From contig DYQY01000003.1 of NCBI GenBank assembly GCA_020719045.1, positions 62,149 through 126,148 on the forward strand: a stretch of 64,000 nucleotides of DNA, read 5' to 3'. A program made the translations under genes and the position numbers. Positions 54,063 through 61,280 of this stretch are shown one piece after another (positions within the stretch are counted from its first letter, which is position 1; the number at the start of each line of letters is the position of its first letter). The notes under the pieces are model-generated. The model searched no databases and was not told the origin of the DNA. It saw only the letters and a program-made list of their open reading frames with translations. The DNA comes from Candidatus Termititenax sp. GTDB lineage: Bacteria > Margulisbacteria > Riflemargulisbacteria > GWF2-35-9 > DYQY01.

Positions 54063-56201
54063 CTATAAAAACAACAATCCTATTCTATAAACCAAGAACG
54101 AAGCTAGCCACGCAACCGACATTGCATATGCAGAATATATACCAACTATCTTCCAAGAACCTGATTCCTTTCTAAAAACTGCAACTGCCGCAATACAAGG
54201 AATATATAGAAGAACAAAGACCATTAAAGACAAGGCTTTAGCTTTATTAAAGAAAGGATCATCTTGAAGTTTTTGTCTTAAATCAACAGAACTTTCATCC
54301 GCTTCACCCAAAGAATATATTGTACCCAAAGTTGAAACCACTACTTCTTTTGCAGCTAATCCAGTAACCAAGGCTATTCCTATTCTCCAATCAAACCCCA
54401 GTGGCTTAATGGCTGGTTCTATTATTTTCCCAGCTCTACCAGCAAAAGAATGCTCTAGCTGTAAAGATGCTTCTTTATAATCCAACTCTTCTATTCTTCT
54501 TTGTCTCTCTGTTTCAGAAAGCTCAGAACTTTTTTGTACTTGTGCTCTTAGTGAAGCATAATCAGTGGCAATTGTTTCGTTATGAGGAAAAGTACTAACT
54601 ACCCAAATAATGATAGAAGCTAGCAAAATAACTGTTCCAGCCTTTCTCAAATACATTTCAGCCTTTATCTTAGCTTGCATTACAATAGACTTAATCGTTG
54701 GCATTCTGTACGGTGGTAGCTCCATAACAAAAGGCTCCGACTCACCCTTAAAGATTGTTTTCTTAAGTAACAAGGCGGAAACAACAGCAATTAACACACC
54801 AAACAAATATACACCAAACAAAACATTCCCAGCCATCTGCGGCGTAAAGAAAGCTCCTATTAACAATACATACACTGGCAACTTAGCACCACAACTCATA
54901 AAAGGAATAATCATCATTGTTACTATCCTGTCACCACGGTTCTTTAGTGTTCTTGTTGCCATAATCGCTGGAATAGAACATCCAAACCCAGTAATCATAG
55001 GAAGAAACGATTTACCATGTAGCCCAACAGCATGCATTACTTTATCTACAACAAACGCTGCTCTTGCCATATACCCTGTCCCCTCTAGAATAGACAATGC
55101 TATAAAAAGAAGAACAATATTTGGAAGAAAAACAACAACTCCACCCACACCAGCAATAACTCCATCAACTAAAACTGAACGCAACATCCCTTCAGGAATA
55201 ATCATGCTTGCAAACACAGATAAATACTCAAACCCGTTCTCTATCCAACCCATTGGCGCTTCTCCAAGCCTAAATGAAAACTGGAATACAAGCCACATTA
55301 TCAAAAAGAAAAAAGGCAAACCTAAAAATCTATTAATTAAAAAAGTGTCTATCCAAGCAGTAATGCTTTTCTTTGTAACCTCATTATATTTAACTGTTTC
55401 CTGAACTGCACCTCTAATAAATGCATTAATATCCTCAACTATCACTATCTCTGGCTCATCAAACCCATTCTTTAAAAATTCTTTAAACGTATCCTGTAAT
55501 ATTAGCTCTATTTTGAGCCAAATTGGATACTCTTTAACTATCGAATATACTTGCTTATCATTTTCTAGTAACTTTATAGCTAACCATCTTGGTGAATACT
55601 TACTCAGCGATTCCTCTAGCTGTAGCACTTCTTCTAGGCTTTCAATTTTTTCTTCAATTCTTTCACTAAAAGCAAGCTTATTCTTTGCTATCACTATATT
55701 TCCAGAATCCACACTTATTATATGCTCAAGCAAATCGTCTAGCCCTGTTTTCTTAACTGCAGAGGTAGGAATAACATGTGAGCCGAACAACTGCTCCAAT
55801 AATTGCACATCTATCTTTGTTCCCTGCTTCTCTACTTCATCATACATATTAAGCGCTACAATCATGTTCGTTTCAAGCGCCATAAGCTGTACTGTAAGAG
55901 CTAAATTCCTTTCCAGATTTGTCCCATCAACCACATTGACCACAACATCAGGTCGTTCATTAATTAGATAGTCTCTAGCTAGTACCTCCTCAGGAGAATA
56001 CGCAGTCAAAGAATACGTTCCTGGCAAATCCACAAACCTAATCGTATGATCTTTATACTTACGAGTACCTTCGTGCTTCTCGATAGTTACGCCAGCCCAA
56101 TTACCAACCTTCTGATTTGCTCCAACCAGCTCGTTAAAAAGGGATGTCTTTCCACTGTTGGGATTCCCTGCCAAAGCTACTCTTATCTCTTTATTTACCA
56201 T
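54063..56201 (-). CDS. feoB: ferrous iron transporter B
   Basis: N-terminal G-domain (LAGNPNSGKTS, DLPGTY), then a polytopic permease; 712 aa. Confidence 0.9.
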   Translation of the reverse strand: MVNKEIRVALAGNPNSGKTSLFNELVGANQKVGNWAGVTIEKHEGTRKYKDHTIRFVDLPGTYSLTAYSPEEVLARDYLINERPDVVVNVVDGTNLERNLALTVQLMALETNMIVALNMYDEVEKQGTKIDVQLLEQLFGSHVIPTSAVKKTGLDDLLEHIISVDSGNIVIAKNKLAFSERIEEKIESLEEVLQLEESLSKYSPRWLAIKLLENDKQVYSIVKEYPIWLKIELILQDTFKEFLKNGFDEPEIVIVEDINAFIRGAVQETVKYNEVTKKSITAWIDTFLINRFLGLPFFFLIMWLVFQFSFRLGEAPMGWIENGFEYLSVFASMIIPEGMLRSVLVDGVIAGVGGVVVFLPNIVLLFIALSILEGTGYMARAAFVVDKVMHAVGLHGKSFLPMITGFGCSIPAIMATRTLKNRGDRIVTMMIIPFMSCGAKLPVYVLLIGAFFTPQMAGNVLFGVYLFGVLIAVVSALLLKKTIFKGESEPFVMELPPYRMPTIKSIVMQAKIKAEMYLRKAGTVILLASIIIWVVSTFPHNETIATDYASLRAQVQKSSELSETERQRRIEELDYKEASLQLEHSFAGRAGKIIEPAIKPLGFDWRIGIALVTGLAAKEVVVSTLGTIYSLGEADESSVDLRQKLQDDPFFNKAKALSLMVFVLLYIPCIAAVAVFRKESGSWKIVGIYSAYAMSVAWLASFLVYRIGLLFL

Positions 56202-56490
56202 GACAGTGTCCTTTCTTTTCTTTGTTGCAACAACGCATTGGCTCTCCGTCTCCTACCTCTCCAATCTTAACAACATTAATATTCTCAGCTTCCTCAACTC
56301 TGAGCATCAAATGACAGCCTCTAAAGCTTATTTCTATTGGATCGCCTAAAGGTGCTTTTCTAACCACTTTTACTTTTAAGCCTTTCGTAACACCCATGTC
56401 TAGAAGTCTTCTTCGAATTTCTCTTGCGGCTTTAACAAAAACAATCTCTGCCTTGTCTCCTGGTTTTAACTCAGACAATTTGCTTTCCAT
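56191..56490 (-). CDS. feoA: FeoA with Cys/His-rich C-terminal extension
   Basis: SH3-like FeoA core (LSELKPGDKAEIV...) plus the tail GEPMRCCNKEKKGHCHGK; overlaps the feoB start by 11 nt. Confidence 0.75.
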   Translation of the reverse strand: MESKLSELKPGDKAEIVFVKAAREIRRRLLDMGVTKGLKVKVVRKAPLGDPIEISFRGCHLMLRVEEAENINVVKIGEVGDGEPMRCCNKEKKGHCHGK

Positions 56491-56512
56491 ATTCTTTCTC
56501 CTTTGTCTCGCA

Positions 56513-56530
56513 AATTAGGATTGCCTAATT
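56513..56530. promoter_or_regulatory. DtxR/IdeR-type operator-like palindrome AATTAGGattgCCTAATT
   Basis: 7-bp inverted arms resembling the TTAGGTTAGCCTAACCTAA iron-box family. Lies between the divergent feoAB operon and the dtxR-family gene, overlapping a TTGCCT..17..TATAAT promoter-like element (56521-56550). Confidence 0.5.
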
Positions 56531-56590
56531 AGTTAAGTCTAATTTATAATAAATCAAGAACATTGTCAACAATTAATTAAGGATTAACAA

Positions 56591-56956
56591 ATGAAACCAA
56601 CTTCTGCAATGGAAGATTATCTAGAAGGGCTACTCAACCTAGAAAAAGGGGGGATTGAAACACGAGTTAAAAATCTTGCTAAAGAACTTAGCATTAAACC
56701 ACCCTCTGTAATAGAAATGGTTAAAACTCTTATAAGCAAAGGATATATTACCCAAGAAAATCGCAAAGAAATCCATCTAACTGAAGCTGGAATGGAAATA
56801 GCAAATAATACTCGCAAAAAACACTCTGCTATTAAATCTTTCCTGCTAGAAACACTTAAGGTTGATGAAGCTACTGCTGAAATAGATGCTTGCAAAATTG
56901 AGCATTGTTTAAGCCCAAAAACCTATGAACAACTAATCAACTTTATGAAGCAATAA
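56591..56956 (+). CDS. DtxR/MntR-family metal-dependent transcriptional regulator
   Basis: N-terminal EDYLE motif and wHTH; 121 aa. Confidence 0.8.
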   Translation: MKPTSAMEDYLEGLLNLEKGGIETRVKNLAKELSIKPPSVIEMVKTLISKGYITQENRKEIHLTEAGMEIANNTRKKHSAIKSFLLETLKVDEATAEIDACKIEHCLSPKTYEQLINFMKQ

Positions 56957-56991: not shown

Positions 56992-58044
56992 TTATACTAA
57001 AAAATAATTATTAACCGAGAACTCATATTGCTGAATAAATAACTCTTTTAAATAAGCAATACTATTCTGTTCATAAAAAAACAACATTGCTTTCTTATAT
57101 TCAACACTATCAACACTACGATATGATAAAGGACAAGCACCAAAAGCATTTAGTATTGCATTACCAGCCAACCTAGCCGTCCTCTTGTTCCCGTCCACAA
57201 AAGGTTGAATATAAGAAATAAGAGCAATAATAACAAGTGCCTTATGAAATGGATCTTCATATGCATTAATCAAACCAACACTACTCTCTAGTGCCTCTTG
57301 TATTTGTTGCTTATTATCTAATGGTCTATAGTTTGTTCCAGTAATACTCACTAAAGAATTCCTTACACCAAAACCAACTGAAAGATTCTGAACCAACAAT
57401 GCATGAATATCCTCAATCTTCCTTACACTCATTTCAAGATAATCTATTTTACTAGAAAAAACATAGTTTAATGCAGTTTTATGATTTAATATCATTATTG
57501 CCTCTTCCTTGCTATGTCCTGGTGCCTCTCTGTTTTCCTTAATAAGAGCCTCCGTATCCAAAAGAGAATAAGTATTACCTTCAATCTGTGAGGATTTCCA
57601 ACTAAGCTCAATAGTCAGTCTCTCTATTTCCTTTTTAAATATATCTGGCGATATACTAGAAATATTTGTTGTGTACTTCTTAGTTAATTGCGCCAAATTC
57701 TTAAGCTCTTTTAAAGAAAATATATCTGAAAAATCATTAAATATATTAAAGTTAAAGCTTTTTTTTACTTCCCTATTATCTGGCTCTAATAAAAAATATT
57801 TTTGCGGATCAAAATAACTCAATAAGGAACTATTCATATATACTCTATACTTCGTACTTCTTCCTTCTCCCTCTTTTTTAATTAACTTTTCATTAATCAA
57901 CACTTCAATGTCACGAACTATTGTTATTCGAGAAACATCATCATAGGTTTCAGCCAAAAATTTCTTTATTTCACTATTAGAAACTAAAGATTTGGCTCTA
58001 ATAAAATCATAAATATTATACTGTCTTTGCGTTAATTGTTTCAT
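56992..58044 (-). CDS. Fic/Fido-domain protein with degenerate active-site motif and N-terminal wHTH-like region
   Basis: Motif reads IQPFVDGNKRTARL; the CAA (Gln) codon was confirmed on the minus strand where canonical Fic has HPFx[DE]GNGRxxR. Confidence 0.7.
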   Translation of the reverse strand: MKQLTQRQYNIYDFIRAKSLVSNSEIKKFLAETYDDVSRITIVRDIEVLINEKLIKKEGEGRSTKYRVYMNSSLLSYFDPQKYFLLEPDNREVKKSFNFNIFNDFSDIFSLKELKNLAQLTKKYTTNISSISPDIFKKEIERLTIELSWKSSQIEGNTYSLLDTEALIKENREAPGHSKEEAIMILNHKTALNYVFSSKIDYLEMSVRKIEDIHALLVQNLSVGFGVRNSLVSITGTNYRPLDNKQQIQEALESSVGLINAYEDPFHKALVIIALISYIQPFVDGNKRTARLAGNAILNAFGACPLSYRSVDSVEYKKAMLFFYEQNSIAYLKELFIQQYEFSVNNYFLV

Positions 58045-58131
58045 GCTAATAGGCTAATTGTAACATTTTGAAACAATTAATCAATTGACTGGTCAAAATA
58101 TCAGTAATAAAAAGGAACTTTTTAGTATCCC

Positions 58132-58629
58132 TTGTTGTATAATATTGATATGAAGAAAAAATTTCTCATTTTTCTATTACCAATGTTATTGCTTCTAACC
58201 GGCTGTCAAACAACTATGTTAGTAGAAAAGGTCGACATGAAAACATTTACACCACTGCTAATCGACTATGCCTCACTTAACGGATACAAGATTCTATACA
58301 GAAACGATGCAACAGGTGCTTACAGGATACATTTAGGACAAATGTATATACCCGCACAACTAGAAACTTATAAAGAAAAAACCACGCAACTACTTACCTA
58401 CAATGTTCAATATGAGCTTACCAAACAAGAAGAAACAACCTTTAGAGCCATTAGCCAAAAAGACCAATATATTGATTTAGTTGTTATGGTAAGAGTATTT
58501 CAGCAAAATAACGACATCAGAATAAACATTGAGGCCGACAACACAAACTACTATCAACCAACATCATCACAAGCAAATAAATTCCGAAGATACTTGGAAA
58601 ATTCTGGTTATACTGTAAGAATATTATAA
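58132..58629 (+). CDS. lipoprotein, function unknown
   Basis: LLLTGC lipobox. Confidence 0.5.
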   Translation: MLYNIDMKKKFLIFLLPMLLLLTGCQTTMLVEKVDMKTFTPLLIDYASLNGYKILYRNDATGAYRIHLGQMYIPAQLETYKEKTTQLLTYNVQYELTKQEETTFRAISQKDQYIDLVVMVRVFQQNNDIRINIEADNTNYYQPTSSQANKFRRYLENSGYTVRIL

Positions 58630-58638
58630 GGAGCTAAA

Positions 58639-59061
58639 ATGAAAATAAATACATCTGTTCTATTTGTGCTAATTATAATCTTAAGCTTCTCCTTAGCTCA
58701 GACTAGGGTTTACAAACAAGAGAAAAGTGTAGCTGTTCACCAAACAGGCAAAGTTGTGGAATCAAAGGATGAAGGTAATTTGTTTGAGATTACACTTGAG
58801 GTAGATGAAACAAGCGATATTGTCACAAAAACAACCATAAGACGATTAGACCAAAACGAAACTAGAACAATAAACAAAAGCTACTCTATCAAAAAAGATA
58901 AAAACACACTCGGCAGTGCAATGGGCGAAGGCGGTAAAACAATCATCGCCGTAGCTGACAACGGCGATGAGATTCTTGAGATAGGTGATGAATTTTTATT
59001 TTCATCTAAAGGTAGTGCCTTCTCACAAATGATTACTGGCGTTTACCGTAGATTACGCTAG
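58639..59061 (+). CDS. secreted hypothetical protein
   Basis: Signal peptide; 140 aa. Confidence 0.4.
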   Translation: MKINTSVLFVLIIILSFSLAQTRVYKQEKSVAVHQTGKVVESKDEGNLFEITLEVDETSDIVTKTTIRRLDQNETRTINKSYSIKKDKNTLGSAMGEGGKTIIAVADNGDEILEIGDEFLFSSKGSAFSQMITGVYRRLR

Positions 59062-59865
59062 CTAAAATACATAAGATACTTTAGACATAAACTGCATTGT
59101 TCTTCCAGAACCATCATCACTATTCACCGACTCTAGAAATAGGTCTAAGTCTTCATCTAGCACAACTTTTAATCCACAAATTATTGCCTGTTTTTCAGCT
59201 GCACCAACCTTAGCTGTCTCATATCTTGAAAGCAATTCATATTCATCACTCACTGGATACGTTAACCCTATAGCAAGGTAATTATCATAACCTTTAGTTA
59301 CATACTCACCATCAAAAGCTATTCCCCACAAACCTACCTCTCCAAAGACACCATATGCTACCTTCTCGTTTGCATCCTTAAGCCCAGAAAGACCCAGAAA
59401 AAGTGAATCATTAAAAGAATATTTACCTCTTAAAACATACATATTTGTAACGTCTTTAGTAGAATTATGAACTCCACCGATCAACTCTAAATCACCTTTA
59501 TTAAAAACAAAATTAACACCTGGCTTATATTTCTCGAAATCTGCCTTCAGAAATGGATCACTTACTGCATGCGTCTTAAATTCCCCAAACCTCACTAACA
59601 TTTGTCCTGCCCTCAAGCTTAAACAATCTGTCATCTTATATCCAACAGAATAGGACTCAATCGCATCGTTCTTCCAAATAAGCTGCGCATCAACCTTATT
59701 TTTAAGTGGAGCATTAATCTGAACAATATAATCCTCTGGCACAAACTTCTGCAACCCACTCTTATACTTAAGCTCAAAAAGCCCACTCACATCAACATTT
59801 GCACTAACTATACTAAAAACACTAACGAGCAAAGTAACCTTAACTGATTTTCCGTTTATACTCAT
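59062..59865 (-). CDS. putative outer-membrane beta-barrel protein
   Basis: Signal peptide, alternating hydrophobic pattern, C-terminal ...SYVF with terminal Phe. Confidence 0.4.
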   Translation of the reverse strand: MSINGKSVKVTLLVSVFSIVSANVDVSGLFELKYKSGLQKFVPEDYIVQINAPLKNKVDAQLIWKNDAIESYSVGYKMTDCLSLRAGQMLVRFGEFKTHAVSDPFLKADFEKYKPGVNFVFNKGDLELIGGVHNSTKDVTNMYVLRGKYSFNDSLFLGLSGLKDANEKVAYGVFGEVGLWGIAFDGEYVTKGYDNYLAIGLTYPVSDEYELLSRYETAKVGAAEKQAIICGLKVVLDEDLDLFLESVNSDDGSGRTMQFMSKVSYVF

Positions 59866-60999: not shown

Positions 61000-61280
61000 A
61001 TGTTTACTGAATTATTAATTAACTGGCATAAAAAATGGTCTTATACTCACCGAAGATTACGTTCAGCGTATCGTAGTTTAAAGACCAACTTACCCTATCT
61101 TTTTACCTATAAAAACTATCCAGAATTGTGTCTTCCAAATACTACAAATTCACTGGAGGGTTCCTTCTCTTCTTTAAACGAATAGAGGTCAAAAGCAGTA
61201 AGGCAGATTCACTTAGATTCATTCCAAAGGAAGAAATGCAGAAAGAAGGCTACGGAAAGTATCTTTATTTATTTCAGTAA
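61000..61280 (+). pseudogene. C-terminal remnant of a DDE transposase (IS256/mutator-like tail) with a -1 frameshift
   Basis: W..W...F.Y..YPE....NTTNSLEGSFSSL resembles the IS256 C-terminal TTNxIESLN region. After the stop at 61183-61185 a -1 frame continues KSSKADSLRFIPKEE...YLYLF, resembling the IS256 tail (K.TKGKRVFPNDES...LYL). No N-terminal catalytic part is present. Confidence 0.4.

Follow-up and report, generated by a model that had tools for sequence, protein, structure and literature searches.

What does a Fic protein do when the histidine on which its relatives depend is gone? Fic enzymes are known as AMPylators, kinases and phosphocholine transferases, all relying on the His of the Fic motif. 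The gene considered here lies on the minus strand of a 64-kb stretch of a Candidatus Termititenax sp. genome (assembly GCA_020719045.1, contig DYQY01000003.1, positions 62,149 to 126,148; 64,000 nucleotides, hereafter the window) and encodes a protein, here called Fic(Q), with Gln in that place. The initial annotation of this DNA had taken it for a regulator-like Fic protein of lost or altered activity, an interpretation that as a whole is partly supported. Here we report that the Gln is the signature of a large and widespread clade, that the protein resembles class II Fic proteins, and that its promoter carries three copies of an operator-like half-site which vary in step with the recognition helix of the adjoining protein. 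We moderately favour the reading that the gene is a mobile, self-contained, single-gene Gln-type Fic module that represses its own promoter and keeps a functional pocket, and that it is not a canonical AMPylator.

The gene is complete, and combines a winged helix-turn-helix (wHTH) with a Fic domain:

56992-58044, minus strand: complete wHTH and Fic(Q) gene, 350 residues, ATG start, stop codon at 56992-56994 (from the list of open reading frames, ORFs)
57829-58044, minus strand: N-terminal wHTH, about residues 1-72
within the wHTH, minus strand: recognition helix, residues 39-51, with invariant R39, T41 and R44; wing with G59, R62 and Y66
57577-57594, minus strand: inhibitory-helix motif S151-S-Q-I-E155-G156, which fits the class II motif (S/T)xxxE(G/N)
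57151-57429, minus strand: Fic core, Pfam PF02661, residues 206-298, including the flap region 219-244
57172-57207, minus strand: variant Fic motif Q280-P-F-V-D284-G-N286-K287-R288-T-A-R291
57205-57207, minus strand: Gln codon CAA
57184-57186, minus strand: Lys codon AAG

Homologues match the protein end to end (residues 1-350), and an AlphaFold2 model made from 50 of them reached a pLDDT of 91.8 and a pTM of 0.87. Residues 206-298 matched PF02661 with an E-value of 1.5e-13 and 51.8 bits (cut-off 24), and solved Fic structures were matched as well, which places the protein in the Fic/Fido superfamily. An N-terminal winged-helix module had been proposed in the initial annotation and is found where expected; it is absent from the Pfam calls only because its scores are sub-threshold. 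When all PDB chains were searched with phmmer, human FICD came out on top (E 7.6e-10), with 'yiQpfvdgnKrtarl' aligned over 'yiHpfidgnGrtsrl'. By this alignment Q280 corresponds to the catalytic His363 and K287 to the second glycine, Gly370, and F282, D284, G285, N286, R288 and R291 are all kept. Compared with the canonical AMPylator motif HxFx(D/E)GNGRxxR, QPFVDGNKRTAR has Gln for His and Lys for the second Gly, and retains F, D, G, N, R and R. The codons ATT CAA ... AGG that had been read as IQPFVDGNKR do lie on the minus strand at 57210 to 57181, and the double substitution noted there holds, its register being fixed by the FICD alignment. A different register with an intact His was rejected, as the FICD alignment is unambiguous and no such motif occurs elsewhere in the protein.

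The same alignment brings out a feature that the initial annotation had not mentioned: residues 151-158 ('SSQIEGNT') fall on 'TVAIEGNT' of FICD, E155-G156 corresponding to Glu234-G235 and S151 to T230. This inhibitory helix, (S/T)xxxE(G/N) with its Glu, is N-terminal to the Fic core as in class II proteins, S..[IL]EG recurs in nearly all of the best 120 homologues, and structurally its nearest neighbours belong to class II and not to class I, class III or Doc. In an alignment of 50 sequences with a mean column identity of 64%, the invariant columns comprise Q280, F282, G285, N286, K287, R288 and R291 of the motif; E141, S151, E155, G156, N157 and T158 of the inhibitory-helix region; R228, G236 and P241 of the flap; and R39, T41, R44, G59, R62 and Y66 of the recognition helix and wing. 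Alignment and model together show a predicted class II Fic fold in which the Mg-binding Asp, the phosphate/anion-binding loop, both motif Arg, the flap and the inhibitory Glu are kept.

Gln in place of the catalytic His is a property of the family. The identical protein is present on 4 contigs from separate sources, including assembly GCA_974328665.1. A word-indexed search of 5.8 billion proteins gave at least 8,000 candidates, and the best 120 matches, which were analysed, are all full length, about 350 residues long and 53-100% identical, the nearest named homologue being that of Candidatus Termititenax (63% identity). In every one of these 120, Gln stands in for the His and Lys for the second Gly (Q[PMLA]F.DGNKRTARL). 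An exhaustive phmmer scan over 1.84 billion 50%-identity representatives returned 295 at E<=1e-30, 1,148 at E<=1e-10 and 2,786 at E<=1e-3; among the best 150 (33-58% identity), Q..[GVA..]NKR is present in 118 and His in none, the motif-less remainder including about 25 truncated fragments and a handful that are further degenerate. Full-length degenerate representatives P0221, P0260, P0273 and P0209 have the motifs GNYS, GSGR, GNEP and GND, and the three with GNYS, GSGR and GNEP, all without NKR, are also without the inhibitory Glu (QLQG, QIAG and ALDG). This joint loss suggests that the inhibitory Glu and the motif work together, and hints that the two may function, or decay, as a unit.

The codons tell the same story: across 79 loci the Gln codon is CAG in 42 and CAA in 37, and CAT or CAC in none. 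Since both Gln codons are in use and no His codon occurs, although His is a single substitution away, the Gln is under purifying selection. A sequencing error at CAA, which the initial annotation had named as able to overturn its reading, is not the case here; homologue motifs, identical contigs and codon usage rule out both an error and a pseudogene.

The clade is broad. At least 595 loci were found when one genome per species (GTDB) was scanned; the best 80 of these are mostly from Patescibacteria, with others from Melainabacteria, Akkermansia, Brachyspira, Spirochaetia, Endomicrobium, Holosporaceae, Rickettsiales, Gamma- and Betaproteobacteria, Synergistaceae and one Nanohalarchaeota bin. 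Q..NKR is also present in 18 relatives from viral contigs. More distant plasmid relatives (27-31% identity; Aromatoleum aromaticum EbN1, Sagittula and Sulfitobacter) carry LQPFEDVNKRVSRL, LQPFDDVNKRVSRL or LQAFADVNKRTSRV and retain SSR[LM]EGNTY together with an N-terminal wHTH-like region. These distant members come from cultured Proteobacteria and have 385-465 residues; the proteins of Aromatoleum (plasmid NC_006824.1, 465 residues) and Sulfitobacter (446 residues) have an extra C-terminal stretch of about 100 residues. Their genes are neighboured by integrase genes, a SIR2-family gene or a TerB-N/ATPase pair, in what looks like a mobile or defence-island setting.

A second conserved element, also absent from the initial annotation, lies in the DNA at the start of the gene:

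58069-58079, plus strand: half-site 1, left arm of an inverted repeat, TGAAACAATTA, in the promoter spacer (pattern search)
58055-58065, minus strand: half-site 2, right arm, TGTTACAATTA, which includes the TG-extended -10 TACAAT (58057-58062)
58033-58043, minus strand: half-site 3, TGAAACAATTA, repeated in direct orientation 22 bp downstream from half-site 2 and overlapping the start codon
58057-58084, minus strand: predicted sigma-70-type promoter, with -35 TTGATT (58079-58084), a 16-nt spacer and the TG-extended -10 TACAAT (58057-58062)

The promoter is predicted by consensus match only (9 of 12 positions, with the TG), and the upstream alignment has the same -35 and extended -10 layout in related loci. 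The -10 ends 12 nt before the ATG, with an implied 5' untranslated region of about 6 nt. No Shine-Dalgarno sequence is visible at the Fic start (58044-58062), and by the predicted promoter the mRNA would be nearly leaderless. Half-site 3 covers ATGAAACAATTA (ATG AAA CAA TTA, or MKQL); in those loci where it overlaps the start codon, ATG AAA CAA TTA and its variants would double as operator sequence, which would constrain the N-terminal residues MKQL. The pattern TGWWACAATTA has 3 matches in the window against 0.54 expected, all of them at 58033-58079, and the full inverted-repeat pattern has 1 match against 0.04 expected.

This array is conserved from Patescibacteria to Proteobacteria. By k-mer counting, 8-mers within 160 bp upstream are common to up to 45 of 74 loci, despite a protein identity of about 50%. 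The elements follow a fixed order: a -35-like TTGnnn; a reversed half-site, TAATTGT(A/T)(T/G)CA; 3 nt; a forward half-site, TGATACAATTA, which holds the TG-extended -10 (TACAAT); 11 nt; and a second forward half-site. An exact 14-mer, AAATGATACAATTA, stands at the position of half-site 2 in 24 of the 74 loci. In a consensus-free test of self-similarity at this geometry (at least 16 of 22), 76% of the 74 upstream regions scored, against 1.6% of 494 control upstream regions from the same loci. When the geometry was varied, matches peaked sharply at a 3-bp spacer, with 8.6 of 11 positions compared with about 3 at other spacings, and at a direct offset of 22 bp, with 9.7 of 11 compared with about 3; the latter is the best offset in 63 of the 74 loci. 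A locus's own right arm is matched by 97 half-sites in about 9.4 kb of promoter windows, compared with 12 in about 390 kb of flanks; as to a wider regulon, no further half-sites were found in the window and almost none in those flanks.

The copies also co-vary within a locus, as seen in TGATAGGAT, TGATACGAT, TGCTACAAT and TGACGCAAT, and their variants go with the protein encoded next to them. Sites with ACAAT pair with an SR[IV]T[IV]VRD recognition helix and a G.GR wing, ACGAT sites mostly with SK.TI[IL]RD and a G.AR wing, AGGAT sites with S.PT[ML]NRD, and GACGCAAT sites with SRETVGRE. At the same place the distant plasmid clade carries half-sites that are GC-rich and likewise repeated and inverted. 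With a putative DNA-binding domain and a Fic domain in one chain, and operator-like repeats over its own promoter, the gene has the arrangement of a helix-turn-helix (HTH)-Fic autoregulator. Based on the conservation, geometry and covariation of the half-sites we infer autorepression, the simplest reading being that the protein's own winged helix binds the three half-sites and represses its own promoter.

We propose that Fic(Q) represents a single-gene, horizontally mobile module of the Q-x-F-x-D-[G/V]-N-K-R clade ('clade D2'). Its winged helix would occupy the half-sites that span spacer, extended -10 and start codon of its own gene and thereby repress its own synthesis, an arrangement demonstrated by experiment for the HTH-Fic protein CccR and typical of toxin-antitoxin operons. 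The inhibitory helix may be viewed as a built-in, in-cis antitoxin, as in other class II Fic proteins. The pocket would bind nucleotide in a Doc-like orientation (Lys287), and the target would be a universally conserved cellular component, workable from Patescibacteria to Proteobacteria. Canonical AMPylation is unlikely because the catalytic His is missing; the chemistry would be independent of His, and our preferred guess is Glu155-assisted hydrolysis or slow phosphotransfer in that Doc-like orientation, with Gln280 placing a water molecule or the leaving group.

That the Fic domain is not dead is a conclusion with less support than the preservation of its fold, and one that we draw because the pocket, flap and inhibitory Glu are more constrained than the rest of the protein. 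It is speculative, if consistent with a best-conserved pocket and a single detectable DNA target, the gene's own promoter, that the output must come from the Fic domain. A bolder possibility, which we regard as unlikely, is that the Gln clade is a new catalytic class of Fido proteins, in which Glu155 is catalytic and Gln280 and Lys287 place the water and the gamma- or alpha-phosphate. If so, its members would be constitutive 'erasers' (dephosphorylases or deAMPylases) or nucleotide-hydrolysing switches rather than transferases, carried by a self-repressing one-gene cassette that crosses bacterial phyla and is abundant in Patescibacteria and other reduced-genome symbionts.

How well does this module stand against other explanations of the same data? 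The upstream repeats might be a strong promoter, an RNA leader element or the site of another factor instead of this protein's operator. The TG-extended -10 lies inside half-site 2, so that promoter function could explain part of the conservation, and half-site 3 stands in or near the transcribed leader. A promoter nevertheless leaves unexplained the inverted copy in the spacer and the third copy exactly 22 bp downstream, the joint change of the three copies within a locus (TGATAGGAT, TGATACGAT, TGCTACAAT), and the way in which site variants follow the recognition helix of the protein encoded next to them. Formation of the inverted repeat in RNA is excluded by its left arm, which is upstream of any plausible transcription start, and an upstream RNA element was rejected, Rfam finding nothing in the promoter region or the whole window. 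No other conserved DNA-binding protein accompanies the gene, and altogether we hold this explanation to be very unlikely. Still harder to credit, to the point of being negligible, is a canonical AMPylating Fic protein in which a sequencing error or a recent inactivating mutation altered the His codon: a single transversion separates CAA from CAT or CAC, but the protein is identical on the four separately sourced contigs, Gln is universal in the family and encoded by two codons, and the ORF is intact, full length and strongly conserved. 

The main rival is that Fic(Q) is a ligand-sensing or scaffolding pseudoenzyme, a pure regulator in which the Fic domain, as a nucleotide-ligand domain or a dimerisation or protein scaffold, tunes binding by the wHTH and no protein is modified. 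The general-base His is missing in every member, the nucleotide- and phosphate-binding residues are kept as a sensor would keep them, a clear candidate operator is present, and pseudoenzymes with conserved pockets are common. Against this, the sole detectable operator (in the window and in the flanks of related loci) is that of its own promoter, and a pure regulator would thus lack an output, only its own gene being regulated. The docking flap (G226, R228, G236, P241) and the inhibitory Glu are invariant and not obviously needed by a small-molecule sensor, and a spread across phyla with one nearly fixed operator better suits a portable, self-contained module than a regulator integrated into its host. 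We consider the pure regulator possible, if on balance doubtful. A Doc-type kinase toxin, which through its NKR motif would phosphorylate a target such as EF-Tu with inverted ATP and a residual or alternative base, seems to us decidedly improbable. The stretch D-G-N-K-R-T-A is like Doc's D-A-N-K-R-T-A, and there are weak matches to TIGR01550 DOC_P1 (E 4.9e-4) and to the Doc-like PHROG 577; moreover, Khater and Mohanty (PMC4454073) put the Q clade in the Doc subfamily and reasoned that replacing His by Gln need not end activity. The TIGR01550 match, however, reaches only 20.3 bits against a cut-off of 38.65, the family profile matched no Doc chain in the PDB at E<=1 and matched FICD at 5e-14, and the Doc motif HxFx(D/N)(A/G)NKR is present in its NKR part, with Gln in place of its His. 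No Phd-type antitoxin gene is adjacent upstream, where a divergent lipoprotein gene is found instead.

Several points weigh against the module that we favour. To our knowledge, His is needed in all characterised Fic/Doc reactions (AMPylation, deAMPylation and phosphorylation), and a Gln enzyme would be unprecedented in the fold. The conserved pocket could equally be ligand-sensing or a purely structural salt-bridge network, and the placement of Q280, E155, K287 and H188 within it is putative. DNA binding by the winged helix is likewise a prediction; the covariation groups may each descend from a single ancestor and hence not be independent events, and conservation of half-site 2 could partly be conservation of the promoter, whose extended -10 lies inside it. 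A toxin or defence role is conjecture, defence genes not being enriched among 150 scanned neighbours and the family being rare in viral collections. A literature search found no experimental study of any clade member, only an in-silico description from 2015.

The neighbouring genes in the window are the following:

54063-56201, minus strand: feoB
56191-56490, minus strand: feoA
56591-56956, plus strand: DtxR-type gene, 121 residues (Fe_dep_repress and Fe_dep_repr_C), convergent with the Fic gene and divergent from feoA
58132-58629: lipobox (LLLLTGC) ORF, 165 residues, no Pfam match, divergent from and upstream of the Fic gene
58639-59061: ORF of 140 residues with a signal-peptide-like N-terminus, without the lipobox Cys, no Pfam match
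within 58132-59865: third ORF of this stretch, 267 residues, on the opposite strand to the other two, no Pfam match

The initial annotation was right about the convergent DtxR-type gene and about one lipobox gene, but the latter lies upstream and divergent instead of following, and the next ORF (58639-59061) is without the lipobox Cys. Its remark that no obvious antitoxin partner is adjacent is upheld: there is no Phd gene, and no neighbour family recurs. When neighbours were clustered, four genes on each side, no partner or antitoxin family was found in more than 6 of 80 loci; in a Pfam and PADLOC scan of 150 neighbours, two genes on each side, no family was matched by more than 3 proteins. 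Nothing recurs beyond 3-6 loci, and the idea of a conserved antitoxin or partner gene was rejected. A same-strand upstream gene lies within 20 bp in only 1 of 71 loci. No synteny is shared with the closest relatives (70% and 63% identity), whose neighbourhoods are wholly different, and none of the window neighbours (DtxR-type gene, feoAB, lipoprotein gene) is conserved across loci. A phage origin was also rejected: the Fic proteins in the curated phage collection are all distant and canonical, and IMG/VR contributes 19 loci.

Some further observations concern these surroundings. The Fic gene adjoins an iron module of feoB, feoA and a short DtxR/IdeR-type repressor gene (54063-56956), and the 70%-identical homologue adjoins a Fur-family gene; this likeness of iron-regulator neighbourhoods is probably coincidence. 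In the lipobox ORF, the ATG at 58150 is likely the true start, rather than the TTG at 58132. An ORF of 61 residues at 61000-61185 resembles a transposase fragment by eye, has no Pfam match and may be a mobile-element relic. On contig CALFEO010000005.1, about 6.8 kb separates two Q-Fic copies (L047 and L048) whose upstream operator regions are identical, GAATTGCCACA / TGTTACAATTA / TGTGACAATTA, and a reverse-transcriptase-like ORF is found near the second copy (L048, 3132-4148), which looks like a recent duplication or a repeated element.

What the locus adds, then, concerns a whole family. In several hundred sequence clusters, from at least about 600 species of many phyla, the His is swapped for an invariant Gln and the other pocket residues, the flap and the regulatory Glu are kept. 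If the clade is active, the Fic fold supports His-independent chemistry; if it is inactive, it is a large and cleanly defined pseudoenzyme family. The putative operator, an 11-bp half-site in three copies with fixed 3-bp and 22-bp spacing and predicted correspondences between helix and bases, makes the family testable. For annotation, 'Fic family protein' should not mean 'AMPylase' where Gln-type genes are concerned.

Among known systems, Doc of the phage P1 Phd/Doc pair shares the NKR version of the motif, with Lys for the second Gly, a version that accompanies kinase activity and an inverted binding of ATP in Doc. Doc differs in retaining the His and in being a single domain of about 126 residues, without flap, inhibitory helix or second motif Arg; it is neutralised by a separate antitoxin, Phd, which is also the operator-binding repressor, and the Fic(Q) locus has no Phd gene. 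Since the family profile finds FICD and no Doc, the Doc-like NKR of Fic(Q) appears to sit in a FICD-like scaffold with flap, second motif Arg and inhibitory helix. From FICD/HYPE and the class II proteins BT_2513, Dde_2494 and SoFic it differs in turn by an identity of only about 19%, by the exchanges of His for Gln and of the second Gly for Lys, and by having neither tetratricopeptide repeats nor a C-terminal wHTH, its own wHTH being N-terminal. Work by Perera et al. in 2019 and 2021 is said to have found that FICD uses His363 for both AMPylation and deAMPylation.

The single-gene combination of Fic domain, wHTH and intramolecular inhibitory helix is shared with SoFic (PADLOC PDLC03963), whose model matches with an E-value of 8.4e-20. 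That match spans the Fic core only (profile positions 45-206 of 361) and so falls short of full length; SoFic has the canonical His and a C-terminal wHTH, where Fic(Q) has Gln and the reverse domain order, and Q-clade neighbourhoods are not enriched for defence genes. CccR of Yersinia pseudotuberculosis, an HTH-Fic protein that represses its own promoter and AMPylates FtsZ via His192 (PMC9755527; the structure is probably PDB 7xux), is a close parallel in arrangement. Its Fic domain is N-terminal and its HTH C-terminal, again the reverse of Fic(Q), its motif is the canonical H192PFGNGNGRTVR, it is secreted by a type VI secretion system, and its gene adjoins effector genes; His-dependent AMPylation of FtsZ would not be expected of Fic(Q), from whose sequence the catalytic His is missing.

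The closest precedent is clade D2 itself, with the consensus Qx[F|Y]x[D|E][G|V]NKR and Gln replacing the catalytic His (Khater & Mohanty, Sci Rep 2015, PMC4454073). The description drew on 45 sequences and presented the proteins as usually single-domain, largely confined to bacteria and belonging to the Doc subfamily, and a selection argument suggested that its proteins are probably not dead (PMC4454073). The window's QPFVDGNKR, the distant relatives' QPFEDVNKR and the family's Q[PMA]F.D[GVA]NKR all agree with this consensus, and the present gene is a fresh member of a clade already published in silico and experimentally untouched. The family found here is far larger: it comprises at least 595 loci and, at E<=1e-30, 295 clusters at the 50%-identity level. 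Fic(Q) has an N-terminal wHTH as well as the inhibitory helix of class II and is more like FICD than Doc; the earlier placement of the Q clade in the Doc subfamily may have been motif-driven. Operator and autoregulation do not figure in the 2015 description (PMC4454073). What appears new here is the size and spread of the clade, a predicted class II instead of a Doc scaffold, the inhibitory helix and, above all, the putative three-site operator whose copies co-vary.

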